From assembly GCF_003334305.1 (NCBI RefSeq), contig NZ_QOWS01000014.1: a stretch of 64,000 nucleotides of DNA; one strand, written 5' to 3'. The position numbers were made by a program, and so were the translations under genes. Shown piece after piece: positions 1 to 22,931 of the stretch (positions within the stretch are counted from its first letter, which is position 1; each line of letters opens with the position of its first letter). Origin of the DNA: Escherichia coli. Its GTDB lineage: Bacteria; Pseudomonadota; Gammaproteobacteria; Enterobacterales; Enterobacteriaceae. Under the pieces are notes generated by a model. It saw nothing but the letters and a program-made list of their open reading frames with translations. It was not told the DNA's origin and did no database searches.

Positions 1-2835
1 CAGCCTGCCGTGACGGTCATACCGGTAAAGATAGTGCGCGTCACGGGCGATACGGTTATCCGGCCACATGCTGAGGGTGCTGTCCGGGTGCAGCTCCGGG
101 TCGGGCAGGCGGTTGCCCGCCGGGTCCGTGGCATACGGGATGCGGATATCCAGATTCGCTGCGGTGGTGTGAACGCCGGTCAGCCTGCCGGTGGTGCTGT
201 AGCTGTAACTCCGGGTCTGGCGCGGGCTGCTGATGCGGATGAGTTCGCCGTTGTCGTTCCAGGTGTAATCGCGGTCATACTGCAGGCTGTTCAGGTGCTG
301 ACGCTGTAACTGCCCGGCAGGGGTGTAAGCGGTGGTGAGTTCATAACGGCCGAAGCGGCGCAGCGTTTCCCGGTGCAGGCGGTCGCGGGTGTACTCCACC
401 AGCGGTGTGTCGCCGAGTTTCATGCCTGCCAGGTAACCGCTGCCGTAGGTCAGCCATTCCACGGCGGGCAGGCTGTCCGGTATACAGCGGTTCGCCAGTC
501 CCTGCGCGTTGTACGCATGTCTGGTCTCATGCTGCCAGAGCAGTGCTTCCGTCTGCGGGTGATGCACCGTCTGGCGCTCACCGGTCAGGCGGCCTTTCTC
601 ATCATACCTGTAATGCACCGCTACCCGGTGCCCTTCGCTGATATGGCTGATGTCTGTCAGCCAGCCACGTTCGTCATACCGCCACCGCTCTGCGGTTTCA
701 CCCTTCACGGTGCGGTGCGTGAGGCGGTCTGCTTCGTCATAGTGCCAGTGGGTGACCAGACCCTCATCCTCGCTGCGGATAAGTTTGCCGGTCAGGTCGT
801 GGTGATAACGCTGTGTGCGGCCGTCAAAGCCGGTTTCCTGTATCAGCCGGTCAAGTACATCGTAACGGAAGGTGGTGTGGCTGCCGTTTTCACTGGTCAG
901 GCGGATGACCCGTCCGGCAGCATCGTATTCCATACTGCGCGTCAGCCCGCCCTGCGTGGTACGGACGGCCTTTCCCCACGCATCGTACTGTGTCCCGTTT
1001 CTGCTGCCGTCCGGGGCAATGACGGCGGTCAGGTCACCGGCGATGTTGTATTCATACCGCGTTTCATGGCCCTGCGTGTCTTTCACCGCAGTTAACTGTC
1101 CACGGCTGTCGTATGCGTGGTACTGGCTCAGGCCTTCCTCGCGGTGCACCGCCGTCACCTGACCAAAACGGTCATGGTCATAGCGGGTTACATAACCGGA
1201 ACAGTCAGTGAAGGTCAGCAACTGACCGTAACGGCTCCACGTCATGGTTTTCCGGCTGCCGGTGGCATCGTCCGTTGCGCAGGGGAGGTCACTGTGTGGA
1301 TTATCATAACGGTAGCGGGTGATATCGCCGTCAGGGGCAGTTTCCTGAATCAGACGGCCGGATTCATCATATTCCCGGCGCAATTCCAGCCCGTCAGGCC
1401 CGGTGGCTGACGTTAACTGGTTGTGGTGGTTATAGTAAAACGCCGATGCCCTGCCATCCGGCGTGGTTATGCGCGTGATGAGGCCCGTCACCACATCCGG
1501 GCTGTACTCTGTTGTCCTGCCTGCGGCATCCGTCTGTGCCCTGAGCCTGCCCACGGCGTCAAACTGACTCTGCGTGACGCTGCCGTCCGCGTGTTCCTTT
1601 TTCACCACCCGCTTCAGCCCGGCTTCGCCCTGCGTGTGCAGCACTTCACGGCGGTCCAGGCTGTCGGTGATGGTGATGTGGTCTTTCTCATACTGATACG
1701 TGTAGCTTAAGCCTGCCGGGTTTAGCTGTTCTGTCACCCGCCCGTCGCTGTCGTAACGGTAACGGATTTCCGGTCGGCTCGTGTGACGGTGCGCCACCAT
1801 CCGGCCCCGGTATTTATCATCGTAAGTAAAGCTGCGCACCTGTGTATTGCTGCGGTCATACACTGCCGCCAGTTCGCCGCGCGGCGTCCAGCCATAGCGC
1901 ACCAGCGGCGCGGCAGGTAAATTCTCCGGGTATTCCGGGTCGTGCGTCAGCCACACGGCAGACAGACGGATGCCGTTGTCCCGGCCATATTCGGTGTAAC
2001 CCGGCAGGGTATCAGGAAAAGCGGACGGTTCCGTCCCGCCGGAAATGGCCTGCTGCCGGGCTTCTTCTGCCCGCTGCGCCTGCGTGGTCAGTACCAGCCG
2101 GAAGTGACGCCCGGCACCATCCGTCACGCCGGTGATTTCGCCGCTGAATTCACCGGCGGCTTCGTGGTGGAACGTCTGTGTGCGCCCGAAGCGGTCCACC
2201 AGCCCGGTCAGTACCCGGTACGGCGGCAGCGGCGCAGGCAGCACCTCATCCGCTTCCGGCACCCGCTCACACCAGCCGAGTACCCACCACGGCCCCTGCG
2301 GACTGTTTGTCGCCAGATAACGATGCGGACTCAGGCGAAGCTCTTCCGGCAGCGCCTGCCAGAGTGCGGCCAGCCGGTGACCTTCATCCAGTTTCGCCAC
2401 ACCGCCGCGCACCAGCCAGAGTGATTCGCTGCGGCTGTAACCGTCCTCACCGGGAAACAGGTGCTCAAAATACAGGCTTCTGCCGCCGTTATCACTGAGT
2501 ATCAGTGTGTTATCGCGCAGCTGTAAGCGGATATCCGCAGGCATTTTCCAGCCGGGGCCGAGGCTCCCCACCGGCGCGGGCGTTTTTGTCCGGTAACTGC
2601 TGTAGGTGCGGGAGAGAATGAACGGCAGCGGGCCGGGCAGGGCGATGTCGGTTTCACCGGGAAGGACCTTTGCACCCAGCAGCGGATTGACCGGATGGCC
2701 GGACGTCACCCCGCCGGGGCACACCGAACAGGCCACGCCGGTGGGGGCACCGATGCGCACCCCGGCTGAACCCTGGACAATGCTACCGCCATACTGCGTC
2801 ATGTCGCCCTGACGCGCCGCCGGTTTTCCGCTCAT
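1..2835 (-). CDS. rhsC: Rhs-family core protein, N-terminal ~945 codons; gene continues beyond the window start
   Basis: Minus-strand frame open from ATG at 2835..2833 to position 1; translation begins [33 protein letters not shown] and carries YD-repeat blocks (RYDxxGRL). AAGGA 7 nt upstream of the ATG. Absent from the ORF track because no stop falls in the window. Symbol assigned from position next to ybfA only. Confidence 0.85.
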
Positions 2836-3023
2836 CTGCTCATCCTTGTTTTATCGGGTTATTTGTCTGCTGACAGGCGAAACCCTACAGATTTATAAGA
2901 AAGCCTTAAGTGAGATATCTGTCAGATAAGAACAATTAGGAAAATATTTATATATATTTCATGAATATATGTTTCGATTGGTATAACGATGTCTAAATAT
3001 TCCTCTGAACATCTTCCTGATAC

Positions 3024-3055
3024 AAAAAACCGCCAGCGTTTCCGCTGGCGGTTTT
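3024..3055. terminator. Hairpin CCGCCAGCG-TTTC-CGCTGGCGG flanked by an A-run and a T-run; likely intrinsic terminator downstream of ybfA
   Basis: Perfect 9-bp inverted repeat at 3030..3051 with A6 before and T4 after; sits just 3' of the ybfA stop on the minus strand. Confidence 0.6.
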
Positions 3056-3077
3056 CAATGTATTCAAAACTCAGCAA

Positions 3078-3284
3078 TCAATAAAAATCACCAGTTGCCT
3101 TTTCGGCCTGATCCATCCACACCGGTTTATCGCTGGTTTTCGACCAGACGCGATGCAGGTAGCTGTAAAAGCGGGCGCGGTCTTTCCAGAAAAGCATGAA
3201 AGGCAGCGCCAGAACGCCCGCTGCAACCGCATAAGTACGGCGTAAAAAGATAAGCCATGCAGGATATTCTCTGTAGAGTTCCAT
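3078..3284 (-). CDS. ybfA: Small membrane protein YbfA (DUF2517), 68 aa
   Basis: ORF-track protein [42 protein letters not shown] matches YbfA as I recall it; position between the Rhs gene and kdp as in K-12. Confidence 0.85.
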
Positions 3285-3493
3285 ACTTTTCTCCCCCTTT
3301 TGTATCTACCCGGTGAATGGCACCGGAAAAATGAATTTGTTTATCTGATGAAAATAGTACCGCCTTTTGTGTAATTTTACTACTCATCCGACCACTTATT
3401 TTTGCTTATTGATGGTTTATTTACATTCATCCTGTAATTAAGTTACACAAAAGTTAAATTAATACTAAACATTAGTTAAATCATGGCTTTTGC

Positions 3494-3560
3494 CATTTTT
3501 ATACTTTTTTTACACCCCGCCCGCAGATTTTTGCGAAATCTTTGCAGCCAGAATTCTACC
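3494..3560 (+). promoter_or_regulatory. kdpFABC promoter region with KdpE direct-repeat box
   Basis: TTTTTATACTTTTTTTACACC (about 3496..3516: TTTATA-N5-TTTACA direct repeats) followed by TTGCGA at 3531..3536, about 60 bp upstream of kdpF. Matches the known KdpE site architecture; exact -10 not resolved. Confidence 0.6.
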
Positions 3561-3596
3561 CTTCCGGTATCACTTTTAGGCCACTGGAGGTGCACT

Positions 3597-3686
3597 GTGA
3601 GTGCAGGCGTGATAACCGGCGTATTGCTGGTGTTTTTATTACTGGGTTATCTGGTTTATGCCCTGATCAATGCGGAGGCGTTCTGA
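3597..3686 (+). CDS. kdpF: KdpF, 29-aa subunit of the Kdp K+-ATPase (GTG start)
   Basis: Translation of the last 29 codons of ORF 3483..3686 is (M)[33 protein letters not shown] 6 nt upstream of GTG at 3597; stop overlaps the kdpA ATG. Confidence 0.85.
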
Positions 3687-5359
3687 TGGCTGCGCAAGGG
3701 TTCTTACTGATCGCCACGTTTTTACTGGTGTTAATGGTGCTGGCGCGTCCTTTAGGCAGCGGGCTGGCGCGGCTGATTAATGACATTCCTCTTCCCGGTA
3801 CAACGGGCGTTGAGCGCGTACTTTTTCGCGCACTTGGCGTCTCTGACCGTGAGATGAACTGGAAGCAATATCTTTGTGCCATTCTCGGCCTGAACATGCT
3901 GGGGCTGGCGGTGCTGTTTTTTATGTTGCTCGGTCAGCACTATCTGCCGCTTAATCCACAGCAGTTGCCGGGGCTGTCGTGGGATCTGGCGCTGAATACC
4001 GCCGTCAGCTTTGTCACGAATACCAACTGGCAATCTTACAGCGGTGAAACCACGTTGAGCTATTTCAGCCAGATGGCTGGCTTAACGGTGCAAAACTTTC
4101 TTTCTGCCGCCAGCGGGATTGCGGTGATTTTTGCCCTCATCCGTGCGTTTACCCGCCAGAGCATGAGCACACTCGGGAATGCCTGGGTCGATCTGCTACG
4201 CATCACGTTATGGGTGCTCGTCCCTGTGGCGTTGTTGATCGCACTGTTTTTTATTCAACAAGGTGCGCTGCAAAACTTTCAGCCTTATCAGGCTGTGAAT
4301 ACCGTTGAAGGAGCGCAACAGCTGTTACCCATGGGGCCTGTAGCTTCTCAGGAAGCGATCAAGATGCTCGGTACTAACGGCGGTGGCTTCTTTAATGCCA
4401 ACTCGTCGCATCCGTTTGAAAACCCAACCGCACTGACCAACTTCGTGCAGATGCTGGCGATCTTCTTGATCCCAACGGCGCTGTGCTTTGCCTTTGGTGA
4501 AGTGACGGGCGATCGCCGCCAGGGGCGCATGTTGCTGTGGGCGATGTCAGTGATTTTTGTCATCTGCGTAGGCGTGGTGATGTGGGCAGAAGTTCAGGGT
4601 AATCCTCATCTGCTGGCGCTCGGCGCAGACAGCAGCATCAATATGGAAGGTAAAGAGAGCCGTTTCGGCGTGCTGGTCAGTAGCCTGTTTGCGGTCGTGA
4701 CTACGGCGGCTTCCTGTGGCGCGGTGATTGCGATGCATGATTCGTTTACCGCTCTCGGTGGCATGGTGCCGATGTGGCTGATGCAAATTGGTGAAGTGGT
4801 GTTCGGCGGTGTCGGTTCTGGTCTTTACGGCATGATGCTGTTTGTCCTGCTGGCGGTGTTTATTGCCGGGCTGATGATTGGTCGTACACCGGAATATCTG
4901 GGTAAAAAAATCGACGTACGCGAGATGAAACTGACTGCACTGGCGATTCTGGTTACCCCGACGCTGGTGCTGATGGGCGCGGCGCTGGCAATGATGACCG
5001 ACGCCGGACGTAGCGCCATGCTCAACCCTGGCCCGCATGGTTTTAGCGAAGTGCTGTACGCCGTGTCATCCGCCGCTAACAACAACGGCAGCGCCTTTGC
5101 CGGATTAAGCGCCAACTCCCCGTTCTGGAACTGTTTACTGGCGTTCTGCATGTTTGTCGGTCGCTTCGGGGTGATTATCCCGGTGATGGCAATTGCCGGT
5201 TCGCTGGTGAGTAAAAAGAGCCAACCCGCCAGCTCCGGCACGCTGCCAACGCACGGCCCGCTGTTTGTTGGCCTGTTAATCGGCACCGTGTTGCTGGTTG
5301 GCGCACTGACCTTTATCCCTGCCCTGGCGCTTGGTCCGGTGGCGGAATATCTCTCCTGA
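3686..5359 (+). CDS. kdpA: K+-transporting ATPase subunit KdpA, 557 aa
   Basis: Internal ATG of ORF 3542..5359 gives [24 protein letters not shown]..., the KdpA N-terminus; ATG overlaps the kdpF TGA (ATGA-type coupling). Confidence 0.95.
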
Positions 5360-5381
5360 TGATATTGAGTGAGCACTGAAT

Positions 5382-7430
5382 ATGAGTCGTAAACAACTGG
5401 CGCTATTCGAACCAACACTTGTCGTTCAGGCGCTGAAAGAAGCGGTGAAAAAATTAAACCCGCAGGCGCAATGGCGCAATCCGGTGATGTTTATCGTCTG
5501 GATCGGCAGTCTGCTGACCACCTGTATTAGCATCGCGATGGCAAGCGGTGCGATGCCTGGCAATGCGCTGTTTAGCGCGGCAATTAGCGGCTGGCTGTGG
5601 GTCACCGTACTGTTCGCTAATTTCGCCGAGGCGCTGGCAGAAGGCCGCAGTAAAGCGCAGGCCAACAGTCTTAAAGGGGTGAAAAAAACTGCCTTTGCCC
5701 GCAAGCTGCGTGAGCCGAAATATGGCGCTGCGGCGGACAAAGTTCCTGCCGATCAACTGCGTAAAGGTGACATCGTGCTGGTAGAAGCTGGCGATATTAT
5801 CCCCTGCGATGGTGAAGTCATTGAAGGCGGCGCATCGGTCGATGAAAGCGCCATCACCGGGGAATCGGCACCGGTGATCCGTGAATCCGGCGGCGATTTT
5901 GCCTCCGTCACCGGCGGCACGCGTATTCTTTCTGACTGGCTGGTGATTGAGTGTAGCGTTAACCCCGGTGAGACATTTCTGGATCGGATGATCGCGATGG
6001 TGGAAGGCGCACAGCGACGCAAAACACCGAACGAGATTGCCCTGACTATCCTGCTGATTGCTCTGACCATCGTCTTTTTACTGGCAACCGCCACGCTGTG
6101 GCCGTTTTCCGCGTGGGGCGGTAATGCCGTGAGTGTAACGGTACTGGTGGCGCTGCTGGTCTGTCTGATCCCAACCACTATTGGCGGCCTGTTGTCAGCG
6201 ATCGGCGTCGCCGGGATGAGTCGGATGCTGGGCGCGAATGTGATTGCCACCAGCGGACGTGCAGTTGAAGCGGCAGGTGACGTTGACGTTCTGCTACTGG
6301 ATAAAACCGGCACCATCACACTCGGTAACCGTCAGGCGTCGGAGTTTATCCCTGCGCAGGGCGTGGATGAAAAAACGCTGGCTGACGCCGCACAACTGGC
6401 TTCGCTGGCTGATGAAACGCCGGAAGGCCGCAGTATTGTGATCCTCGCCAAGCAACGTTTTAACCTGCGCGAGCGCGATGTGCAGTCGCTCCATGCCACC
6501 TTTGTACCGTTTACTGCGCAAAGCCGGATGAGCGGGATCAACATCGACAACCGCATGATCCGTAAAGGTTCTGTCGATGCCATTCGCCGCCATGTTGAGG
6601 CTAACGGCGGTCACTTCCCTACCGATGTTGATCAAAAAGTCGATCAGGTTGCGCGTCAGGGGGCCACGCCGCTGGTGGTGGTGGAAGGTTCCCGTGTGCT
6701 GGGCGTTATTGCGCTGAAAGATATCGTCAAAGGCGGTATTAAAGAGCGCTTCGCCCAGCTGCGCAAAATGGGCATTAAAACGGTGATGATTACCGGCGAT
6801 AACCGTCTGACTGCCGCCGCCATTGCTGCGGAAGCGGGCGTCGATGATTTTCTCGCCGAAGCGACACCGGAGGCCAAGCTGGCATTGATTCGTCAGTATC
6901 AGGCGGAAGGCCGTTTGGTGGCGATGACCGGCGACGGCACCAACGATGCTCCAGCGCTGGCGCAGGCAGATGTCGCGGTGGCGATGAACTCCGGTACTCA
7001 GGCGGCGAAAGAAGCGGGCAATATGGTCGATCTCGACTCTAACCCGACCAAGTTGATCGAGGTGGTACATATTGGCAAACAGATGCTGATGACCCGTGGC
7101 TCGCTGACCACCTTCAGCATTGCCAACGATGTGGCGAAATACTTCGCCATTATTCCGGCGGCGTTCGCGGCAACGTATCCGCAGTTAAATGCGCTGAACA
7201 TCATGCGCCTTCATTCGCCCGACTCCGCCATTCTCAGTGCGGTCATTTTCAACGCCTTGATTATCGTCTTTTTGATTCCTCTGGCGTTAAAAGGCGTGAG
7301 TTATAAACCGCTTACCGCTTCTGCCATGTTGCGCCGTAACTTATGGATTTACGGTCTGGGTGGGCTGCTGGTGCCGTTTATTGGTATCAAAGTCATTGAT
7401 TTACTGCTGACCGTTTGCGGTCTGGTGTGA
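5382..7430 (+). CDS. kdpB: K+-transporting P-type ATPase catalytic subunit KdpB, 682 aa
   Basis: ORF-track protein with P-type ATPase motifs DKTGT (phosphorylation site), TGDN and GDGTNDAP. Confidence 0.97.
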
Positions 7431-7438
7431 GGTTTACC

Positions 7439-8011
7439 ATGCGTGGCTTACGTCCGGCATTATCGACATTTATCTTTCTGTTATTGATTACTGGCGGCGT
7501 TTACCCGCTGCTGACCACCGTGCTGGGGCAATGGTGGTTTCCCTGGCAGGCCAACGGTTCGTTGATTCGTGAAGGTGATACGGTGCGGGGTTCGGCATTA
7601 ATCGGGCAGAATTTTACCGGCAACGGCTATTTTCAGGGTCGCCCGTCGGCAACGGCAGAAATGCCCTATAATCCACAGGCTTCTGGCGGGAGCAATCTGG
7701 CGGTCAGTAACCCTGAGCTGGATAAACAAATAGCCGCACGCGTTGCTGCATTACGGGCCGCTAACCCGGATGCCAGTACGAACGTTCCGGTTGAACTGGT
7801 GACGGCATCGGCAAGCGGGCTGGACAATAATATCACCCCGCAAGCGGCGGTCTGGCAAATCCCACGCGTGGCGAAAGCGCGTAATCTCAGCGTTGAACAG
7901 CTCACGCAACTGATCGCAAAATACAGCCAACAACCGCTGGTGAAATATATCGGCCAGCCGGTCGTCAACATTGTTGAACTCAATCTGGCGCTGGATAAAC
8001 TTGATGAATAA
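7439..8011 (+). CDS. kdpC: K+-transporting ATPase subunit KdpC, 190 aa
   Basis: Internal ATG at 7439 (GAGG upstream) gives [40 protein letters not shown]; the upstream part of ORF 7415..8011 overlaps the kdpB 3' end and is not coding. Confidence 0.93.
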
Positions 8012-10688
8012 CGAACCCTTACGTCCCGACCCCGATCGTCTGCTGGAACAAACTGCCGCGCCGCATCGGGGGAAGCTGAAAGTTTTCTTCGGTGCCTGTG
8101 CAGGCGTCGGGAAGACCTGGGCGATGCTGGCAGAAGCCCAGCGACTGCGGGCGCAAGGGCTGGATATTGTGGTTGGCGTGGTAGAAACCCATGGGCGGAA
8201 AGATACCGCCGCCATGCTTGAAGGGCTGGCTGTTCTGCCGCCCAAACGCCAGGCGTACCGTGGGCGGCATATCAGCGAGTTTGATCTCGATGCCGCCCTC
8301 GCCCGCCGTCCGGCGCTGATCTTAATGGACGAACTGGCGCACAGTAATGCGCCAGGTTCTCGTCATCCTAAACGCTGGCAGGATATCGAAGAACTGCTGG
8401 AAGCTGGCATTGATGTTTTCACAACCGTCAACGTTCAGCATCTGGAAAGTCTGAATGATGTGGTCAGCGGCGTCACCGGAATTCAGGTACGGGAAACCGT
8501 GCCCGATCCTTTTTTCGATGCCGCCGACGACGTAGTGCTGGTGGACTTGCCCCCGGACGATCTGCGCCAGCGGCTGAAAGAAGGCAAAGTCTATATTGCC
8601 GGGCAGGCGGAGCGCGCCATTGAACATTTTTTCCGCAAAGGCAATCTGATCGCCCTGCGTGAACTGGCACTGCGCCGTACTGCCGATCGCGTAGATGAGC
8701 AAATGCGCGCCTGGCGGGGGCATCCTGGTGAAGAGAAAGTGTGGCACACGCGCGACGCGATCCTTTTATGCATCGGGCATAACACCGGCAGTGAGAAACT
8801 GGTCCGCGCGGCGGCGCGGTTGGCCTCGCGCCTGGGTAGCGTCTGGCACGCGGTGTATGTTGAAACCCCTGCCCTGCATCGCTTACCGGAAAAAAAACGT
8901 CGGGCAATTCTCAGCGCCTTACGTCTGGCGCAGGAGCTGGGCGCGGAGACGGCTACACTTTCTGATCCAGCGGAAGAAAAAGCAGTAGTGCGTTATGCCC
9001 GTGAACATAATCTCGGCAAGATTATTCTCGGTCGCCCGGCCTCGCGCCGCTGGTGGCGTCGGGAAACGTTTGCTGACCGACTGGCGCGCATCGCCCCCGA
9101 TCTCGATCAGGTGCTGGTCGCGCTTGATGAACCACCCGCCCGCACGATTAACAACGCGCCGGATAGCCGCTCTTTTAAAGACAAGTGGCGGGTACAGATT
9201 CAGGGATGCGTGGTTGCCGCCGCGTTATGCGCCGTTATCACTTTAATTGCCATGCAGTGGCTGATGGCGTTTGATGCCGCCAACCTGGTGATGCTGTATC
9301 TGCTTGGCGTGGTGGTGGTGGCGCTATTTTATGGACGCTGGCCTTCGGTGGTTGCTACCGTCATTAATGTGGTGAGTTTCGATCTCTTTTTTATCGCCCC
9401 ACGCGGCACGCTCGCTGTCTCTGATGTGCAATATCTGCTGACCTTCGCGGTGATGTTAACCGTCGGGCTGGTGATCGGGAACCTTACTGCGGGTGTGCGT
9501 TATCAGGCGCGGGTAGCCCGTTACCGCGAGCAACGCACACGGCACTTATATGAAATGTCGAAAGCTCTGGCGGTGGGCCGCAGTCCGCAGGACATCGCCG
9601 CCACCAGCGAACAATTTATTGCCTCCACGTTTCATGCCCGCAGTCAGGTGTTGTTGCCCGATGACAACGGTAAATTGCAGCCGTTAACACATCCGCAAGG
9701 AATGACCCCGTGGGACGATGCCATCGCACAGTGGAGTTTTGATAAAGGCCTGCCTGCGGGTGCGGGCACCGACACGTTACCCGGTGTACCGTACCAGATT
9801 TTGCCGTTAAAAAGCGGTGAGAAAACCTACGGGCTGGTGGTGGTGGAACCAGGGAATCTGCGTCAGTTGATGATCCCGGAACAGCAGCGCCTGCTGGAGA
9901 CGTTTACGCTGTTAGTCGCCAATGCGTTTGAGCGGCTTACGCTGACCGCCAGTGAAGAACAGGCGCGGATGGCAAGCGAACGGGAACAGATCCGCAACGC
10001 TCTGCTGGCGGCGCTTTCGCATGATTTACGCACGCCGCTCACGGTGCTGTTCGGTCAGGCAGAAATCTTAACGCTCGATCTGGCAAGCGAAGGATCGCCT
10101 CACGCCCGCCAGGCCAGCGAGATTCGTCAGCACGTGCTGAACACTACCCGACTGGTGAATAATCTACTGGATATGGCGCGAATTCAGTCCGGCGGCTTTA
10201 ATTTGAAGAAAGAGTGGTTAACGCTGGAAGAAGTGGTCGGCAGCGCGCTGCAAATGCTGGAACCGGGTTTATCGTCGCCCATCAATCTTTCTCTGCCAGA
10301 ACCGCTGACCTTAATCCACGTTGACGGGCCACTCTTTGAACGGGTGCTGATTAATCTGCTGGAGAACGCGGTGAAATATGCGGGTGCGCAGGCCGAAATT
10401 GGTATCGATGCCCACGTTGAGGGCGAAAATCTACAACTGGATGTCTGGGATAACGGCCCCGGTCTTCCGCCAGGCCAGGAGCAGACGATATTTGATAAGT
10501 TTGCTCGCGGGAATAAAGAGTCGGCAGTACCGGGGGTAGGGCTTGGACTGGCAATTTGTCGGGCGATAGTGGATGTACACGGGGGCACTATTACCGCGTT
10601 CAACCGACCGGAAGGTGGTGCCTGTTTTCGTGTTACACTTCCCCAGCAAACTGCCCCTGAACTTGAAGAATTTCATGAGGATATGTGA
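8004..10688 (+). CDS. kdpD: Sensor histidine kinase KdpD, 894 aa
   Basis: ATG at 8004 gives [45 protein letters not shown] (P-loop); C-terminal HisKA/HATPase motifs ([23 protein letters not shown]). Start overlaps the kdpC stop. Confidence 0.96.
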
Positions 10689-11362
10689 CAAACGTTCTGA
10701 TTGTTGAAGATGAACAGGCTATTCGTCGCTTTCTGCGCACGGCGCTGGAGGGCGACGGGATGCGCGTCTATGAGGCCGAAACGCTGCAACGCGGCTTGCT
10801 GGAAGCGGCTACCCGTAAGCCAGATTTGATTATTCTCGATCTCGGCCTGCCCGATGGTGATGGGATTGAGTTTATCCGCGACCTGCGCCAGTGGAGCGCG
10901 GTGCCGGTGATTGTGCTTTCCGCACGCAGCGAAGAGAGCGACAAAATCGCCGCGCTGGATGCCGGAGCGGATGATTATCTGAGTAAGCCGTTTGGCATTG
11001 GCGAATTGCAGGCCCGTCTGCGCGTCGCTTTACGCCGCCACTCCGCCACCGCCGCGCCCGATCCGCTGGTGAAATTTTCCGATGTTACCGTCGATTTAGC
11101 CGCCCGCGTGATTCACCGGGGTGAGGAAGAGGTGCATCTCACGCCGATTGAGTTCCGCCTGCTGGCGGTGCTGCTGAATAATGCCGGGAAAGTGCTCACC
11201 CAGCGCCAGTTACTCAATCAGGTGTGGGGGCCAAACGCGGTCGAACACAGTCACTATTTGCGTATTTATATGGGACATCTGCGACAAAAACTGGAACAGG
11301 ATCCCGCTCGCCCCCGCCATTTCATTACTGAAACCGGTATTGGGTATCGGTTTATGCCATGA
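10685..11362 (+). CDS. kdpE: Response regulator KdpE (OmpR family), 225 aa
   Basis: ORF-track protein [32 protein letters not shown]...; receiver Asp in LIILDLGLPDGDG; winged-helix C-terminus; 4-bp overlap with kdpD. Confidence 0.96.
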   Translation: MTNVLIVEDEQAIRRFLRTALEGDGMRVYEAETLQRGLLEAATRKPDLIILDLGLPDGDGIEFIRDLRQWSAVPVIVLSARSEESDKIAALDAGADDYLSKPFGIGELQARLRVALRRHSATAAPDPLVKFSDVTVDLAARVIHRGEEEVHLTPIEFRLLAVLLNNAGKVLTQRQLLNQVWGPNAVEHSHYLRIYMGHLRQKLEQDPARPRHFITETGIGYRFMP

Positions 11363-11636
11363 ATGTTTATTCAATAAATGCGCTTAAATAATTATTAATT
11401 TATTATTAAACCTGCCAAAAATATTATTATTTGGCAGGTTTAATTTCTTAACGCAAATATAAAACACAAAATTACAACATTTAAATAACAAAACAGCATC
11501 TAATATGGCGCTATTCATAATTAATGATTTATTATTTGGGGTATGATCGTTTTTTGTTGATCTTCTTCACAGATTATAGCCATTTCATGGATAGAATAAC
11601 TCTACCTTCAACTGACACAGCAAGAGGTAAAGGTAA

Positions 11637-11741
11637 ATGGAAAATAATAACCGCTTAATGCCTCATATAAGGCGGACAACCCATATCATGAAGTTTGCCC
11701 ATCGTAATAGTTTTGACTTTCATTTCTTTAATGCCCGCTAG
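11637..11741 (+). CDS. speFL: speF leader arrest peptide SpeFL, 34 aa
   Basis: ATG 11637 to TAG 11739..11741 translates MENNNRLMPHIRRTTHIMKFAHRNSFDFHFFNAR, which I recognise as the ornithine-sensing leader peptide; 300 bp upstream of speF. Below the ORF-track size cutoff. Confidence 0.8.
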   Translation: MENNNRLMPHIRRTTHIMKFAHRNSFDFHFFNAR

Positions 11742-12051
11742 TCTTCTGACTAAAGGGCACCCCAACGTACAGGTCTCCCTGACTTTAAGCATTACAGGTT
11801 AATACCTGTATTCCTCGGTGCTCATATACTGCTAACCCTTTTAAACTCTAAATAATTCGAGTCGCAGCACTTGCAACTTGAGGTATGACGAGTATAGCCA
11901 GTTACCGGGCTGGTCTGGGTTATTGCATCTGCAAAAAGCAAACTACTGATTTATTTATCAGCGGTGGAGCTTTGCTTTTTTTCCGGCGTGATCGATTTCT
12001 CCTTTGAGAAATTGAGGACCTGCTATTACCTGAAATAAAGAGATGAACAAA

Positions 12052-14250
12052 ATGTCAGAATTAAAAATTGCCGTTAGTCGTTCTTGCCCTGATTGTTTTT
12101 CCACTCATCGTGCATGCGTGAATATAGACGAAAGTAATTATATTGACGTTGCCGCCATTATTTTATCAGTCAGTGATGTTGAACGTGGAAAACTCGATGA
12201 AATAGACGCTACTGGCTATGACATTCCTGTTTTTATTGCAACGGAAAATGAAGAACGTGTACCCGCAGAATATCTGCCACGTATTTCTGGTGTCTTCGAA
12301 CATTGCGAATCACGTAAAGAGTTTTATGGACGTCAGTTAGAAACCGCTGCCAGCCATTATGAAACGCAACTGCGCCCGCCCTTCTTCCGCGCACTGGTCG
12401 ATTATGTTAATCAGGGCAATAGTGCTTTTGACTGCCCTGGTCATCAGGGGGGTGAGTTTTTCCGTCGCCATCCGGCAGGCAATCAGTTCGTGGAATACTT
12501 TGGCGAAATGCTCTTCCGCTCTGACTTGTGTAATGCTGACGTAGCAATGGGCGATCTGCTGATTCATGAAGGTGCGCCATGTATTGCACAACAGCATGCG
12601 GCTAAAGTCTTTAATGCCGATAAAACCTATTTCGTTTTAAACGGTACTTCATCTTCTAATAAAGTGGTCTTAAACGCATTGCTGACGCCGGGCGATCTGG
12701 TGTTGTTTGACCGCAATAACCATAAATCTAACCACCACGGTGCGTTGCTACAGGCTGGCGCGACACCGGTTTATCTGGAAACCGCACGTAACCCGTATGG
12801 TTTTATCGGTGGTATTGACGCTCACTGTTTTGAAGAAAGTTACCTGCGTGAGCTGATTACAGAAGTTGCACCGCAGCGGGCAAAAGAGGCTCGTCCTTTC
12901 CGCCTCGCCGTTATTCAGCTAGGCACTTACGACGGTACGATTTATAACGCCCGTCAGGTGGTGGATAAAATTGGTCATCTGTGTGACTACATTCTGTTTG
13001 ACTCCGCATGGGTTGGCTATGAGCAATTTATCCCGATGATGGCTGACTGTTCGCCGCTGTTGCTGGATCTTAATGAGAACGATCCGGGTATTCTGGTTAC
13101 GCAATCCGTACATAAACAGCAGGCTGGTTTTTCTCAAACTTCACAAATCCATAAAAAAGACAGCCACATCAAAGGGCAACAGCGTTATGTACCGCACAAA
13201 CGCATGAACAACGCCTTTATGATGCACGCCTCCACCAGCCCGTTCTATCCGCTGTTTGCCGCACTGGATATCAACGCCAAAATGCATGAAGGTGTCAGCG
13301 GTCGTAATATGTGGATGGATTGTGTGGTAAATGGCATTAATGCCCGCAAACTGATCCTCGATAACTGTCAGCATATTCGTCCGTTCGTACCTGAACTGGT
13401 GGATGGTAAACCCTGGCAGTCGTATGAAACAGCGCAAATTGCGGTTGATCTGCGCTTCTTCCAGTTTGTACCAGGGGAACACTGGCATTCTTTTGAAGGC
13501 TATGCAGAGAATCAATACTTTGTCGATCCTTGCAAACTGTTGCTGACAACCCCAGGTATTGATGCACGTAACGGCGAATATGAAGCGTTCGGTGTACCCG
13601 CGACGATTCTTGCTAACTTCCTGCGCGAAAATGGCGTAGTGCCGGAAAAATGCGATCTTAACTCCATCCTCTTCCTGCTGACTCCGGCAGAAGATATGGC
13701 CAAGCTTCAGCAACTTGTTGCCCTGCTGGTACGCTTCGAAAAACTGCTTGAGTCCGACGCGCCATTAGCAGAAGTGCTGCCTTCCATCTACAAACAGCAT
13801 GAAGAGCGCTACGCCGGTTATACCCTGCGTCAGTTGTGTCAAGAAATGCATGATTTGTATGCCCGTCACAACGTGAAACAACTGCAAAAAGAGATGTTCC
13901 GTAAGGAACACTTCCCACGCGTAAGCATGAATCCGCAAGAAGCCAACTACGCCTATTTACGCGGTGAAGTGGAGCTGGTTCGTCTGCCGGATGCAGAAGG
14001 CCGTATCGCTGCCGAAGGTGCGCTTCCTTATCCTCCGGGTGTGCTGTGCGTTGTTCCGGGTGAAATCTGGGGTGGTGCTGTTCTGCGTTACTTCAGCGCT
14101 CTGGAAGAAGGGATCAACCTGTTGCCAGGTTTTGCACCGGAGCTTCAGGGTGTCTATATCGAAGAACATGATGGTCGTAAGCAAGTTTGGTGCTATGTCA
14201 TCAAGCCTCGTGATGCGCAAAGTACCCTGTTGAAAGGGGAAAAATTATGA
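12052..14250 (+). CDS. speF: Inducible ornithine decarboxylase SpeF, 732 aa
   Basis: Protein (MSELKIAVSRSCPDCFST...) is a fold-III PLP decarboxylase with the ornithine decarboxylase body; start chosen at the second ATG (12052) to match the K-12 length, with an in-frame ATG at 12043 as alternative. Confidence 0.93.
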   Translation: MSELKIAVSRSCPDCFSTHRACVNIDESNYIDVAAIILSVSDVERGKLDEIDATGYDIPVFIATENEERVPAEYLPRISGVFEHCESRKEFYGRQLETAASHYETQLRPPFFRALVDYVNQGNSAFDCPGHQGGEFFRRHPAGNQFVEYFGEMLFRSDLCNADVAMGDLLIHEGAPCIAQQHAAKVFNADKTYFVLNGTSSSNKVVLNALLTPGDLVLFDRNNHKSNHHGALLQAGATPVYLETARNPYGFIGGIDAHCFEESYLRELITEVAPQRAKEARPFRLAVIQLGTYDGTIYNARQVVDKIGHLCDYILFDSAWVGYEQFIPMMADCSPLLLDLNENDPGILVTQSVHKQQAGFSQTSQIHKKDSHIKGQQRYVPHKRMNNAFMMHASTSPFYPLFAALDINAKMHEGVSGRNMWMDCVVNGINARKLILDNCQHIRPFVPELVDGKPWQSYETAQIAVDLRFFQFVPGEHWHSFEGYAENQYFVDPCKLLLTTPGIDARNGEYEAFGVPATILANFLRENGVVPEKCDLNSILFLLTPAEDMAKLQQLVALLVRFEKLLESDAPLAEVLPSIYKQHEERYAGYTLRQLCQEMHDLYARHNVKQLQKEMFRKEHFPRVSMNPQEANYAYLRGEVELVRLPDAEGRIAAEGALPYPPGVLCVVPGEIWGGAVLRYFSALEEGINLLPGFAPELQGVYIEEHDGRKQVWCYVIKPRDAQSTLLKGEKL

Positions 14251-15566
14251 GTCAGGCTAAATCGAACAAAATGGGCGTCGTTCAGTTAACCATACTGACG
14301 ATGGTCAACATGATGGGCTCCGGTATCATCATGCTGCCGACAAAGCTTGCCGAAGTTGGGACAATTTCAATTATCTCCTGGCTGGTGACAGCCGTAGGCT
14401 CAATGGCACTGGCATGGGCATTCGCAAAATGCGGTATGTTCAGCCGTAAATCAGGTGGTATGGGCGGTTATGCCGAGTATGCTTTCGGTAAGTCCGGCAA
14501 TTTTATGGCGAACTACACCTACGGTGTCTCGCTGCTGATTGCTAACGTCGCGATTGCTATTTCGGCGGTTGGTTACGGCACCGAACTGCTCGGCGCGAGT
14601 TTGTCGCCAGTGCAGATTGGTCTTGCGACCATCGGAGTGCTGTGGATTTGTACCGTGGCTAACTTTGGTGGTGCGCGCATTACCGGGCAAATCAGTAGCA
14701 TTACTGTGTGGGGGGTCATTATTCCGGTGGTAGGCCTGTGCATTATCGGCTGGTTCTGGTTTAGCCCGACGCTTTACGTTGATTCCTGGAATCCGCATCA
14801 TGCACCGTTCTTCAGTGCAGTAGGTTCTTCCATCGCTATGACGCTGTGGGCTTTTCTCGGTCTGGAGTCTGCGTGTGCGAATACTGATGTAGTGGAAAAC
14901 CCGGAACGTAATGTGCCAATCGCGGTACTCGGCGGTACGTTAGGTGCGGCGGTGATTTATATCGTCTCCACCAACGTGATTGCAGGGATTGTGCCTAATA
15001 TGGAGCTGGCAAATTCAACGGCACCATTTGGCCTGGCCTTCGCACAGATGTTCACACCAGAAGTGGGTAAAGTCATTATGGCGCTGATGGTGATGTCCTG
15101 CTGCGGTTCGCTGCTTGGCTGGCAGTTCACCATTGCCCAGGTGTTTAAATCTTCATCTGATGAAGGCTACTTCCCTAAAATTTTCTCCCGTGTAACCAAA
15201 GTGGATGCACCGGTGCAGGGAATGTTGACCATTGTGATTATCCAGAGCGGGTTGGCGCTGATGACGATTAGCCCGTCGCTAAACAGTCAGTTCAACGTGC
15301 TGGTTAACCTGGCCGTGGTGACCAATATCATTCCGTATATTCTGTCAATGGCGGCATTAGTCATTATTCAGAAGGTCGCTAATGTGCCCCCCTCAAAAGC
15401 GAAAGTTGCAAACTTTGTTGCTTTTGTTGGCGCGATGTATAGCTTTTATGCGCTGTACTCATCCGGGGAAGAAGCCATGCTGTACGGTTCCATCGTGACC
15501 TTCCTTGGTTGGACACTGTATGGTCTGGTATCACCACGCTTTGAACTGAAAAATAAACACGGTTAA
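14247..15566 (+). CDS. potE: Putrescine-ornithine antiporter PotE, 439 aa
   Basis: ORF-track protein MSQAKSNKMGVVQLTILTMVNMMGSGIIMLPTKLAEVG... (APC-family transporter); 4-bp overlap with speF. Confidence 0.96.
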   Translation: MSQAKSNKMGVVQLTILTMVNMMGSGIIMLPTKLAEVGTISIISWLVTAVGSMALAWAFAKCGMFSRKSGGMGGYAEYAFGKSGNFMANYTYGVSLLIANVAIAISAVGYGTELLGASLSPVQIGLATIGVLWICTVANFGGARITGQISSITVWGVIIPVVGLCIIGWFWFSPTLYVDSWNPHHAPFFSAVGSSIAMTLWAFLGLESACANTDVVENPERNVPIAVLGGTLGAAVIYIVSTNVIAGIVPNMELANSTAPFGLAFAQMFTPEVGKVIMALMVMSCCGSLLGWQFTIAQVFKSSSDEGYFPKIFSRVTKVDAPVQGMLTIVIIQSGLALMTISPSLNSQFNVLVNLAVVTNIIPYILSMAALVIIQKVANVPPSKAKVANFVAFVGAMYSFYALYSSGEEAMLYGSIVTFLGWTLYGLVSPRFELKNKHG

Positions 15567-15577
15567 AAAAGCAAAGT

Positions 15578-15610
15578 AAAAAAGGGCGATCTTGCGACCG
15601 CCCTTTTTTT
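15578..15610. terminator. Bidirectional intrinsic terminator between convergent potE and pgm
   Basis: AAAAAAGGGCGATCTTGCGACCGCCCTTTTTTT: GC-rich stem with an A-tract on one side and a T-tract on the other, in the 55-bp gap between the two stop codons. Confidence 0.75.
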
Positions 15611-15621
15611 ATTAAATGTGT

Positions 15622-17262
15622 TTACGCGTTTTTCAGAACTTCGCTAACAATCTCAACCGCTTCTTTCTCAATCTGCTTGCGATGTTCTTCACCGAGGAAG
15701 CTTTCGCAGTAGATCTTATATGCGTCTTCCGTGCCTGACGGACGCGCGGCGAACCAGCCGTTGTCGGTCATCACTTTCAGACCGCCGATAGAAGCACCAT
15801 TGCCCGGTGCCGCCGTCAGGCGCGCGGTGATCGGGTCGCCTGCAAGGGTGCTGGCGCTCACCATTTCCGGAGACAGCTTAGACAGCGCCGCTTTTTGTGC
15901 GGAAGTCGCGGCTGCCTGCAAACGGTTGTAGCTCGGCGCACCAAAGCGTTTTGCCAGTTCGTTGTAGTGTTCCTGCGGGTTCTTACCGGTGACAGCGGTG
16001 ATTTCCGCCGCCAGCAGACACATAATGATGCCGTCTTTGTCGGTGGACCACGGCGTGCCGTCGAAACGCAGGAAGGAAGCCCCTGCGCTCTCTTCGCCGC
16101 CAAAGCCGAAGCTGCCGTCGAACAGACCATCAACAAACCATTTGAAACCTACCGGGACTTCTACCAGCTTACGGCCCAAGTCATTGACCACACGGTCGAT
16201 CATCGCAGAAGAAACCAGCGTTTTACCGACAGCAACATCTTTGCCCCACTGCGGACGATGCTGGAACAGGTAGTTGATCGCCACCGCCAGGTAGTGGTTC
16301 GGATTCATCAAACCTGCCGGAGTGACGATACCGTGACGGTCATAATCCGGGTCGTTAGCAAACGCCAGATCGAACTTATCACGCAGTGCCAGCAGGCCCG
16401 CCATCGCACACTCGGAGGAGCAGTCCATACGGATCGCGCCGTCTTTATCAAGGTGCATAAAGCGGAAGGTTTGATCGACCTGATCGTTAACGATGGTCAG
16501 GTTGAGGTTGTAATACTCGCCAATACGCTTCCAGTATTCGATACCGGAACCGCCCAGCGGATCAACGCCCAGCGTCAGGCCCGCTTTCTGAATTGCCGCC
16601 ATATCAACGATATCGGCCAGACCTTCCACAAACGGCTGCACCAGATCCTGCTCTTTTACATGACCGGATGCCATCGCTTCGTCGAGGGAGATACGCTTCA
16701 CGCCTTTCAGGCCATCGGCCATCAGTGCGTTGGCCCTGTCTTCCACCACTTTGGTGACGTTGGTATCAGCCGGGCCACCATTTGGCGGGTTGTACTTGAT
16801 ACCACCATCTTCCGGCGGGTTATGGGACGGTGTAATCACGATACCGTCTGCCAGCGGGCCACCTTTTTTATTGTGAACCAGGATGGCATTGGAAATGGCA
16901 GGTGTCGGAGTGAAGCCATTGTTTTCCTGCACAATGACATCAACGCCGTTCGCTGCCAGCACTTCCAGTACGGAAATGAACGCAGGCTCGGACAGGGCGT
17001 GAGTATCTTTACCCACATAGCAAGGGCCAGTGATGCCGTTTTTCGCACGTTCTTCAGCAATTGCCTGAGCGATCGCCAGAATGTGCGGCTCGTTAAAGCT
17101 GTGGCGCGCTGCACTGCCACGGTGACCGGAAGTACCGAATTTCACCGCGTGCTCCGCATTCCCTGCTTCTGGTTTCAGTACATAATATTGCGCCGTCAGT
17201 TGGGCGACGTTAATCAAATCACTCTGTTGTGCAGGTTGGCCTGCACGATTGTGGATTGCCAT
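15622..17262 (-). CDS. pgm: Phosphoglucomutase, 546 aa
   Basis: Internal start of ORF 15622..17313 gives [51 protein letters not shown] (phosphoserine motif TSGHRG). Confidence 0.96.
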
Positions 17263-17287
17263 TGCTTTGTCCTTTGTCTGCAACGTT

Positions 17288-17833
17288 TTAGATAGTTCCG
17301 CAAACCTTCTCAATCAATTCCGCCGGGAATTGCATCGACTGCATGATGTGTTCGATCATGCTGCATTTACGGCCGGTGTTGGTGTTGGTGATCACCCAAT
17401 ACGGCGTGCCTGGCACATGTTTCGGCTTGGTCTGATTACCATTTTTCAGCAGCGTTTGTTCATCTGCCGCAAAGTAAACGCGTGTACGACCGTGCAACGA
17501 TTCCGTTGCTTCGGCAAACGCCTGGGCGTCAAGAGAATATAGTGTAGACAACAGCAGCATAAAGCGATTGACCGCTCGCTTTTGCTCTGCGTATTCATCC
17601 GAAAGCAGAAGTTCACGCATTGCGCGAACCTTGTCTTTAATCGTTTTGACCGGCTTCGCTTCGACGATAGCAGGTGACGCAACGCGAACCTCTTTCGTCA
17701 CCGGAGCAGCAGGCTGTGATGCGGCGGAAAATTTCAACATACGCCGTAAAATGTCGGATGCGCTCTCGCCGATATGCTTAGTGTGGCTGGCAATATAGCT
17801 GTAGAGTTCATCATCAACTTCAATCGTTTTCAT
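17288..17833 (-). CDS. seqA: Replication-initiation negative regulator SeqA, 181 aa
   Basis: Internal start of ORF 17288..17968 gives [35 protein letters not shown]...; 25 bp upstream of pgm on the same strand (seqA-pgm operon). Confidence 0.95.
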
Positions 17834-18017
17834 CTTAATCCAGTGCAGTGTCTTAGCTGAATACAAGTCGCCAGGAGTATATGAATAAATCCCGGCAGCG
17901 GATAGCGTCAAGCCTGGCTTGCAGAAAAACTCGGAATAAACCTTATTTGTTGCAGCCCTGTGGCACAATGGTCAACATAATACCCTAACCCGACAACGCG
18001 AAAAAAAGAACTTTGCC

Positions 18018-18782
18018 ATGAAATTGAATATCCGCGCGCAAACTGCACAAAACCAGCACAATAATTCTCCCATCGTTCTTGTCCATGGTCTGTTTGGTAG
18101 CCTCGACAACCTTGGCGTACTGGCTCGCGATCTGGTAAATGATCACAATATCATCCAGGTTGATATGCGTAACCACGGTCTTTCACCGAGAGATCCGGTG
18201 ATGAATTACCCGACGATGGCGCAGGATCTTGTTGATACTCTGGATGCACTGCAGATCGACAAAGCAACATTTATCGGTCACTCCATGGGCGGTAAAGCGG
18301 TAATGGCACTTACTGCACTGGCCCCCGATCGCATCGATAAACTGGTGGCGATTGACATCGCGCCGGTCGACTATCACGTACGCCGTCATGATGAGATTTT
18401 CGCAGCTATCAACGCGGTCAGTGAATCGGACGCACAAACTCGCCAGCAAGCAGCAGCAATAATGCGCCAGCATCTTAATGAAGAAGGGGTGATTCAGTTT
18501 CTGTTGAAATCTTTTGTTGACGGGGAGTGGCGCTTTAACGTGCCGGTATTGTGGGATCAGTATCCGCATATTGTGGGTTGGGAGAAAATCCCGGCATGGG
18601 ATCACCCTGCCCTGTTTATCCCTGGCGGCAATTCTCCGTATGTTAGCGAGCAGTACCGTGATGATTTACTGGCACAATTTCCACAGGCACGGGCGCATGT
18701 GATTGCAGGCGCGGGTCACTGGGTCCATGCTGAAAAACCGGATGCGGTATTACGCGCTATCCGTCGCTATCTCAATGATTAA
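18018..18782 (+). CDS. ybfF: Alpha/beta-hydrolase esterase YbfF, 254 aa
   Basis: ORF-track protein with the GHSMGG nucleophile-elbow motif; divergent from seqA. Confidence 0.93.
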   Translation: MKLNIRAQTAQNQHNNSPIVLVHGLFGSLDNLGVLARDLVNDHNIIQVDMRNHGLSPRDPVMNYPTMAQDLVDTLDALQIDKATFIGHSMGGKAVMALTALAPDRIDKLVAIDIAPVDYHVRRHDEIFAAINAVSESDAQTRQQAAAIMRQHLNEEGVIQFLLKSFVDGEWRFNVPVLWDQYPHIVGWEKIPAWDHPALFIPGGNSPYVSEQYRDDLLAQFPQARAHVIAGAGHWVHAEKPDAVLRAIRRYLND

Positions 18783-18921
18783 CGCAACTGATTAAAAACC
18801 CAGCGTCCGCGTCGCTTTCCGCGCGTGGGCGTTGGCGTGACTCATCGCGCTGATGTATTATGGCGCGCTATCCATCCGGGCAGAGGCCTGGCTGATTGTT
18901 TCCCCCGAAGTCACCAAGATC

Positions 18922-19215
18922 ATGGCCAAAGAACAAACGGACCGTACGACATTAGATCTGTTCGCGCACGAGCGTCGACCGGGACGACCGAAAACTAATC
19001 CGCTTTCGCGCGATGAACAGCTGCGTATTAATAAACGCAACCAGCTAAAACGCGACAAAGTACGTGGCCTTAAGCGTGTCGAACTGAAGCTGAACGCGGA
19101 AGCTGTCGAGGCGCTGAACGAGCTGGCGGAGTCGCGCAATATGAGCCGTAGCGAACTGATCGAAGAGATGTTAATGCAGCAACTGGCGGCGCTGCGTAGT
19201 CAGGGCATCGTTTAA
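18922..19215 (+). CDS. ybfE: YbfE (LexA-regulon protein in K-12), 97 aa
   Basis: Internal ATG of ORF 18853..19215 gives [46 protein letters not shown]...; start chosen by length recall. Confidence 0.8.
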
Positions 19216-19354
19216 ATTTCCACTTTCATGTAGCACAGTGTGCAGTCCTGCTCGTTTGCTGATTCCGCAAGACTGCCTGTTCTGCTATGATTGCCTTTAT
19301 CCGTGGGCAATTTTCCACCCCCATTTCAATAAGTTTCAAGAGGTTATTTCACTC

Positions 19355-19885
19355 ATGGCTATCACTGGCATCTTTTTCGGCAGCGACACCGGTAATACCG
19401 AAAATATCGCAAAAATGATTCAAAAACAGCTTGGTAAAGACGTTGCCGATGTCCATGACATTGCAAAAAGCAGCAAAGAAGATCTGGAAGCTTATGACAT
19501 TCTGCTGCTGGGCATCCCAACCTGGTATTACGGCGAAGCGCAGTGTGACTGGGATGACTTCTTCCCGACTCTCGAAGAGATTGATTTCAACGGCAAACTG
19601 GTTGCGCTGTTTGGTTGTGGTGACCAGGAAGATTACGCCGAATATTTCTGCGACGCATTGGGCACCATCCGCGACATCATTGAACCGCGCGGTGCAACCA
19701 TCGTTGGTCACTGGCCAACTGCGGGCTATCATTTCGAAGCATCAAAAGGTCTGGCAGATGACGACCACTTTGTCGGTCTGGCTATCGACGAAGACCGTCA
19801 GCCGGAACTGACCGCTGAACGTGTAGAAAAATGGGTTAAACAGATTTCTGAAGAGTTGCATCTCGACGAAATTCTTAATGCCTGA
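19355..19885 (+). CDS. fldA: Flavodoxin 1, 176 aa
   Basis: Internal ATG of ORF 19238..19885 gives [71 protein letters not shown] (FMN-binding T-G-N-T loop). Confidence 0.96.
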
Positions 19886-20090
19886 TGTGATGCGGCGTAG
19901 ACTCATGTCTACGCCGTATTAATAGATAATGCCAATCAAAATAATTGCTACAAATTTGTAACTTTTGCTGTTGTACCTGTACAATGTCCCGGTGTTCAAG
20001 TGGCCTTGCCGTTGTAAATGTAAGCTGTGCCACGTTTTTATTAACAATATTTGCCAGGGACTTGTGGTTTTCATTTAGGCGTGGCAATTC

Positions 20091-20109
20091 TATAATGATA
20101 CGCATTATC
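20091..20109. promoter_or_regulatory. Fur-box-like 19-mer in the fur/uof promoter region
   Basis: TATAATGATACGCATTATC matches the Fur consensus GATAATGATAATCATTATC at 15 of 19 positions; overlaps the uof start codon. Confidence 0.6.
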
Positions 20110-20181
20110 TCAAGAGCAAATTCTGTCACTTCTTCTAATGAAGTGAACCGCTTAGTAACAGGACAGATTCCGCATGACTGA
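20095..20181 (+). CDS. uof: Uof leader peptide, 28 aa, translationally coupled to fur
   Basis: Last 28 codons of ORF 19945..20181: MIRIISRANSVTSSNEVNRLVTGQIPHD; its stop overlaps the fur coding start (fur ATG 20174). Confidence 0.7.
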   Translation: MIRIISRANSVTSSNEVNRLVTGQIPHD

Positions 20182-20620
20182 TAACAATACCGCCCTAAAG
20201 AAAGCTGGCCTGAAAGTAACGCTTCCACGTTTAAAAATCCTGGAAGTTCTTCAGGAGCCGGACAACCATCACGTCAGTGCGGAAGATTTATACAAACGTC
20301 TGATCGATATGGGTGAAGAAATTGGTCTGGCTACGGTATATCGCGTACTGAACCAGTTTGACGACGCTGGTATCGTCACCCGCCACAATTTTGAAGGCGG
20401 TAAATCCGTATTTGAACTGACACAGCAACATCACCACGATCACCTGATTTGCCTCGACTGCGGCAAGGTTATCGAATTTAGTGATGATTCCATCGAAGCG
20501 CGTCAGCGTGAAATTGCCGCAAAACATGGCATTCGCCTGACTAACCACAGTCTCTATCTTTACGGTCACTGTGCCGAAGGCGATTGCCGCGAAGATGAGC
20601 ACGCGCACGAAGGCAAATAA
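20174..20620 (+). CDS. fur: Ferric uptake regulator Fur, 148 aa
   Basis: ORF-track protein MTDNNTALKKAGLKVTLPRLKILEVLQEPDNHHVSAEDLYKRLIDMGEEIGLATVYRVLNQFDDAGIV... with the HHHDH and C-terminal Cys metal sites. Confidence 0.97.
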   Translation: MTDNNTALKKAGLKVTLPRLKILEVLQEPDNHHVSAEDLYKRLIDMGEEIGLATVYRVLNQFDDAGIVTRHNFEGGKSVFELTQQHHHDHLICLDCGKVIEFSDDSIEARQREIAAKHGIRLTNHSLYLYGHCAEGDCREDEHAHEGK

Positions 20621-20635
20621 GCCAGCCTGAACGAG

Positions 20636-20663
20636 AAAAGCCAACCTGCGGGTTGGCTTTTTT
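20636..20663. terminator. Bidirectional terminator between convergent fur and chiQ
   Basis: AAAAGCCAACCTGCGGGTTGGCTTTTTT: 8-bp stem (GCCAACC-side) with flanking A and T runs. Confidence 0.7.
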
Positions 20664-20703
20664 ATGCAAGGGAAATAAGAAAAGCGAGAGTTACAGCTCT
20701 CAC

Positions 20704-21030: not shown

Positions 21031-21079
21031 AGCAAATTCCTCAAACGTGCGGCAGGCACAAAACCTGCCGCGTCGGGCA

Positions 21080-22486: not shown

Positions 22487-22844
22487 GGGTTAATCCTCTT
22501 TGACGTATAAATTGCTGCACCAAAGGTGAACAGCGAAAAAATAAAAATTAAAAAAGTAGCGTTGAGAAAAGTCTCGCTGACTACAGGAACAGACTATTTT
22601 TCGCGACGCGAATTATCAATCTCTTTCTGTAACCAGAATGTAAGAACATGAGCAACCGCACATATTTTGATGATTTTTGTTACAAGGCTTAAGTTTGCGG
22701 TTGAAAGGCTTGCAGAAGAATAAAAGCGTGAATTTCCAGCAAGATGGAAGCGGTTACATTTTATTTAATTATGGTTTGTGATTTTAAATTTATTTTATGG
22801 ATAAATTGCGAAGCGGAATTAATTCGCGAAGAAAAGCAGAAAAA

Positions 22845-22863: not shown

Positions 22864-22931
22864 TTGGGATTGTTTGCTATTTCTTGCCGGATGCGACGTA
22901 AATGCCTCACCCGGCCTGGTAGAACTTAAAA

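Follow-up and report, generated by a model that had tools for sequence, protein, structure and literature searches.

The window analyzed here is a stretch of 64,000 nucleotides from an Escherichia coli contig (NZ_QOWS01000014.1, assembly GCF_003334305.1). Its first gene lies on the minus strand and is cut by the edge of the window. Only one open frame is present on the minus strand of 1..2850; it begins with an ATG at 2835..2833 and continues for 945 codons without a stop to position 1. A ribosome-binding site (AAGGA) is present at 2847-2843, with the ATG eight bases downstream. The frame was missing from the list of open reading frames (ORFs) solely because it leaves the window. The G+C content of 1..2835 is 0.626, compared with 0.511 for the remainder of the window, and no other stretch of 2835 bases in the window exceeds 0.576. 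Third codon positions of the frame are 73% G+C. The features of the locus are collected in Table 1.

Table 1. Features of rhsC and its surroundings in the window, and of the alternative allele found in two related strains.
Feature	Position	Strand	Basis
rhsC, codons 1-945 of about 1397	1..2835	-	Open frame, NF041261, identity with A7; cut by window edge
N-terminal segment, residues 1-47, short, putatively PAAR-like	2695..2835	-	Predicted autocleavage H47/P48; Tse5 alignment
DUF6531, residues 46-123, predicted N-terminal plug of Rhs cocoon	2467..2700	-	Pfam PF20148, E = 1.7e-17
YD/RHS repeats, residues 318-892, predicted beta-cocoon wall	160..1884	-	13 PF05593 matches; TIGR01643; homology to 8cp6, 7q97, 8qja
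Putative recombination (gene-conversion) tract, minimum extent, gene nt 223-1000	1836..2613	-	13 differences from A7 rhsC
ybfA-rhsC intergenic region: ybfA terminator hairpin, AT-rich stretch, rhsC ribosome-binding site	2836..3077	-	Read from sequence
ybfA (68 aa), conserved neighbor upstream of rhsC, marks the locus	3078..3284	-	Annotated in A7, K-12, 41, PS1Thumoskin9
Alternative rhsC-locus allele, strains 41 and PS1Thumoskin9	6636-10835 of each extracted locus		Full-length core and ybfO tip, then ybfC

Among 5,426 complete E. coli genomes, the best match to positions 1-3400 is the rhsC and ybfA pair of strain A7. It is 99.6% identical, and no genome in this set gave a higher value. At least 80% of the same stretch is present in 3,890 of the 5,426 genomes, and nearly all of them give some match. 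The top matches adjoin ybfA and are annotated "rhsC: rhs element protein RhsC"; the PGAP name of the A7 orthologue is likewise 'rhs element protein RhsC'. The 945 residues match the NCBIfam model NF041261 ("RHS element core protein"), covering its positions 1-959 of 1261 at E = 0 with a score of 1971 bits. The cut-off of this model is 2000 bits, and the fragment falls just under it solely because the gene is cut.

Upstream of rhsC the gene order is ybfA, followed by the divergently oriented kdpF, kdpA, kdpB, kdpC, kdpD, kdpE and speF, as in A7 and K-12 MG1655. The kdpA, kdpB, kdpC and kdpD genes, which belong to the potassium-pump operon kdp, begin approximately 3.5 kb into the window. The site of rhsC is between ybfA/kdpFABCDE and phr; gene and site are long known from the catalogue of Jackson et al. 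2009 (PMC2935791). There, rhs locus 5 (kdpA-phr) carries a clade I rhs and is counted among the species' oldest rhs loci. The family match, the identity with A7, the gene order and the catalogued site therefore identify the frame, at the level of sequence, as the 5' 68% of E. coli rhsC, a clade I Rhs core gene.

Between the two genes, the minus strand carries an intrinsic terminator after ybfA, with a hairpin at 3052-3029 (ACCGCCAGCG-GAAA-CGCTGGCGGT) and a T-run to 3024. A simple consensus scan found no sigma-70 consensus promoter upstream of rhsC. This is weak evidence either way because the obvious ybfA terminator hairpin also escaped the consensus scan. Repeats within 1-3500 are limited to short pairs of low identity, as expected of YD-repeat coding sequence.

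In addition to DUF6531, the YD_repeat model TIGR01643 matches with E = 1.9e-35, and 10 of the 13 matches to the Pfam family RHS_repeat have E values of 0.001 or lower. The original prediction had described the first 2.8 kb as the GC-rich N-terminal and YD-repeat portion of an Rhs core gene on the minus strand that runs off the window. Each of these statements is borne out, and the end that it gave at 2835 turns out to be the start codon; the prediction left the gene unnamed. The solved structures that match best are Rhs shells of type VI secretion systems (T6SS), namely Tse5 of Pseudomonas aeruginosa (8cp6, E = 2.8e-91), 7q97 (E = 3e-52) and 8qja.

The alignment to Tse5 (PA2684; 8cp6, 9i9y), a T6SS Rhs effector and the best match among solved structures, is informative at the N-terminus. 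Residues 48-145 of RhsC align to the Tse5 shell with E = 5e-16. At the start of this alignment Tse5 reads PVNPMLGSKLLPEEVD; its shell chain opens with P48. Tse5 and RhsC share an N-terminal segment of approximately 47 residues, a shell start of the form PVNP(L/M)LG(A/S)K, a DUF6531 plug, YD repeats and a tip of approximately 150 residues. Tse5 undergoes two cleavages, one at K47/P48 and one after L1168, and its N-terminal fragment of 47 residues is PAAR-like and required for secretion (PMC10684867). The same study assigns the N-terminal plug of Tse5 to DUF6531 and the release of the toxin to an aspartyl protease within the C-terminal plug (PMC10684867). The two proteins differ in that they come from different genera, the RhsC tip has no detectable family, and cleavage and secretion of RhsC are proposed by analogy only.

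Pfam gave no match to the PAAR domain (PF05488) at E <= 10 anywhere in the 945 residues. Only weak matches to PAAR-type tip proteins were obtained, between residues 2-29 and the last repeat of 9rce_c (E = 0.02) and of 4jiv_D (E = 0.58). Judged by these matches, the N-terminal segment of RhsC is best described as PAAR-like, as is that of Tse5, rather than as a full PAAR domain.

Ten ORFs of at least 50 aa lie wholly within 1..2835 on the plus strand. Plus-strand ORFs of 240 and 160 aa are long for antisense frames, and one or more of the ORFs at 10..2812 could in principle be a real overlapping gene. Their number and length are, however, reproduced by a codon-shuffle null. Shuffling of the Rhs codons leaves the number of stops in the codon-aligned antisense frame at 10, and the longest antisense open stretch is 261 codons as against 266 +/- 76 in the shuffles. 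None of the ten has an NCBIfam match at E <= 1. The differences from the diverged allele of strain 41 are 21 synonymous and 13 non-synonymous in the Rhs frame, whereas in the frame of the long plus-strand ORFs the same differences are 4 synonymous and 30 non-synonymous. The RefSeq annotation of four genomes (A7, K-12, 41 and PS1Thumoskin9) contains nothing on the plus strand opposite rhsC. The shuffle null, the lack of family matches and the substitution pattern lead us to reject plus-strand genes, and a real gene among these ORFs is extremely improbable. The ORFs are chance by-products of the GC-rich Rhs codon usage, as had been predicted when they were called antisense artefacts.

Approximately 300 core residues, the PxxxxDPxGL boundary, a tip of approximately 150 residues and a candidate immunity gene sit beyond position 1. 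This region can be viewed through A7. The A7 RhsC protein has 1397 residues and scores 2628.8 bits against the RHS_core cut-off of 2000. Its Rhs_assc_core match spans residues 1170-1247 and ends with PISNIDPLGL at 1238-1247, after which a Cys-rich tip of 150 residues follows. The core-tip boundary in A7 corresponds to approximately 880-910 bases past position 1, and the end of rhsC to 1359 bases past. The order in A7 is an intact rhsC with the RhsC tip, ybfB, ybfO (an orphan core fragment whose tip differs), ybfC and ISAs1 remnants, with ybfB, the orphan ybfO and ybfC all within 4.7 kb of position 1. The arrangement after rhsC is the same in K-12, which, like PS1Thumoskin9, was compared by annotation only. 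The K-12 element (b0700; rhsC-ybfB-ybfO-ybfC-ybfQ/L/D) also shares the ybfA/kdpFABCDE flanks, the start codon, the GC-rich core and the domain order with the window. It differs in that the window shows 945 of 1397 codons, and the window allele contains a patch of 13 sites identical to the Rhs gene at yibF-yibH, which is described below.

The original prediction had placed the tip and the immunity gene beyond position 1 and had suggested an extension of 3-5 kb. The position of the boundary in A7 agrees with the first statement, and the distances in A7 to the boundary, the end of the gene and ybfC indicate that the suggested extension is about right. No truncated or frameshifted rhsC was seen in the closest relatives (A7, 41 and PS1Thumoskin9). 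No Pfam toxin family was detected in the RhsC or ybfO tips; in A7 RhsC and the strain 41 Rhs, the C-terminal 297-299 residues gave the RHS core motif only. The NCBIfam models likewise gave no match for YbfA, YbfB or YbfC. Because the tips, YbfB and YbfC are without a family match, any role of this locus in toxicity or immunity is putative and is assigned by position and analogy. The window holds only the conserved and uninformative part of rhsC, and by itself that part matters little.

Two related strains contain a different allele. Strains 41 and PS1Thumoskin9 are 98.8% and 99.1% identical, respectively, to positions 1-3400 of the window. In both, the Rhs protein has 1399 residues and ends in the ybfO tip, ybfC follows directly, and the RhsC tip and ybfB are absent. 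The activation of an orphan tip by recombination between a full core and a downstream orphan core has been described as C-terminal displacement (PMC2935791). The allele of strain 41 is the product expected from such an event, and the orphan ybfO tip has apparently been promoted to an expressed position in these two strains. The visible sequence of the window is that of the undeleted A7 type.

The existence of this allele raises the alternative that rhsC in the window is a pseudogene or is rearranged past position 1, whether by truncation, by fusion to the ybfO tip with loss of the RhsC tip and ybfB, or by acquisition of an RhsB-type tip. The orphan core aligns to rhsC gene nt 2695-3729, of which the window holds 141 bases. 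Within these 141 bases the window has the bases of A7 rhsC and not those of strain 41, and the sites that differ from strain 41 include nt 2709, 2718, 2721 and 2824. Over gene nt 1001-2835 the window is identical to A7 rhsC, and 24 sites distinguish it from the allele of strain 41. The other compared parts of the window are likewise free of mismatches to A7, whose arrangement is of the intact K-12 type. A rearranged or inactivated gene is therefore unlikely. It does draw some weight from the two strains with the ybfO tip and from a property of the A7 copies: after nt 1000, the first site that separates rhsC from its paralogue is nt 2970, 135 bases outside the window.

That paralogue is of interest because of a recombination tract in rhsC. 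The window and A7 genes differ at 13 sites, all of which cluster at gene nt 223-1000. In the parts compared outside rhsC (2836-12400, 14001-33687 and 33824-63779) there are zero mismatches to A7. At all 13 sites the base of the window is that of the A7 paralogue at yibF-yibH. At nt 18, 60, 84 and 126 the window has the rhsC base and not that of the paralogue. Since the compared parts outside rhsC are those of A7 base for base, apart from a deletion in a tRNA array, the patch is readable as a single recombination event. The simplest reading of these bases is a recent gene conversion from the yibF-yibH copy to rhsC; the patch may instead have been imported from the rhsC of another strain. A piece of 551 bases that spans the patch has 100% identity to genes that carry the name rhsB in many strains and the name rhsC in a few.

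The tRNA array lies beside asnB at 33417-33900. It contains five genes (Met, Leu, Gln(UUG), Met, Gln(CUG)) as compared with seven in A7. The array is 221 bases shorter than that of A7, and one copy of each duplicated tRNA-Gln is missing. This could be either a deletion between tandem copies or a collapse in the assembly.

The K-12 rhsB site, nikR-yhhJ, is occupied in A7 by a HicAB toxin-antitoxin pair (17052-17683 of the extracted locus) with no rhs. We considered an A7 rhsB at nikR-yhhJ as the donor of the patch and rejected it, as the site lacks such a gene; the donor-like copy is at yibF-yibH. The yibF-yibH locus, which is the K-12 rhsA site, contains in A7 an Rhs gene whose tip is of the RhsB type, together with yhhH; yibA follows. 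The locus that this tip occupies therefore varies between strains.

The tract's 5' end falls between gene nt 127 and 222. The rhsC and yibF-yibH copies of A7 are identical over nt 1001-2969, and the 3' end therefore cannot be placed within the window. Because the tract may reach the unseen far end of the gene, three tip types are possible for this rhsC. The RhsC type is the most likely, then the ybfO type, then the RhsB type. For the last of these, a very recent conversion within the genome, from the paralogue approximately 3.15 Mb away, would have run through the core-tip boundary and brought to rhsC an RhsB-type tip and the immunity gene yhhH. We consider this quite improbable. If true, an exchange of tips between two loci within a single genome would have been captured very nearly as it happened.

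Jackson et al. 2009 (PMC2935791) considered that clade I cores at separate loci exchange sequence infrequently, if ever. Read as a conversion from yibF-yibH, the patch would be a clean example of such an exchange with the donor sequence in the same genome. It also implies that in a truncated rhs gene the core is not a safe guide to the tip. The tract is nonetheless a tidy but minor observation, and its value is modest and methodological.

Because the layout of RhsC is the same as that of Tse5, we infer that the same mechanism would apply. By comparison with Tse5, RhsA and Rhs1, the full RhsC would form a closed beta-cocoon around a C-terminal toxin of approximately 150 residues. Self-cleavage after PxxxxDPxGL by the aspartyl protease of the C-terminal plug would release the tip, and a second cut would probably fall between H47 and P48. 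RhsC would be mounted on a VgrG spike through residues 1-47 and fired into neighboring bacteria by the T6SS. Protection of the producing cell would fall to the small downstream gene (ybfB in K-12 and A7).

Several observations count against this model. The PAAR resemblance is weak, the simple scan gave no consensus promoter upstream, and no vgrG, hcp or chaperone gene is found beside rhsC, either in the window or in A7. The region expected to confer the activity also lies past the window edge. To our knowledge E. coli K-12 has no T6SS, yet it has kept rhsC. An alternative is that rhsC is intact but silent. It could serve as an undelivered reservoir for recombination, supplying core or tip to other rhs loci, or it could form an intracellular pair resembling a toxin-antitoxin system. 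The absence of an adjoining vgrG, the lack of a consensus promoter in the simple scan and the retention of the locus in K-12 are consistent with this alternative. So is the tract common to rhsC and the yibF-locus paralogue, which indicates that the copies exchange sequence. Rhs elements of Salmonella are also reported to function as toxin-antitoxin modules (PMC7043789). The coding sequence argues in the other direction, as the frame of 945 codons is fully open and the differences from strain 41 show a synonymous excess.

The genome of A7 also argues against a silent copy. This near-clonal strain has, at aspV and approximately 540 kb from rhsC, a complete T6SS cluster that includes hcp, vgrG and a linked Rhs gene. 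The Rhs gene of this island (locus 1 of Jackson et al.) is directly downstream of hcp and vgrG, whereas rhsC has no secretion gene alongside. The vgrG-linked Rhs is 70% identical to the window protein over 945 residues, and the N-terminal segment, which would direct delivery, is highly similar in the two. A silent rhsC is thus a reasonable possibility but the less likely one. The explanation that best accounts for the observations, and which we hold with high confidence, combines the identification of rhsC, the Rhs/T6SS mechanism suggested by its homologues and the origin of the plus-strand ORFs as by-products of Rhs codon usage.
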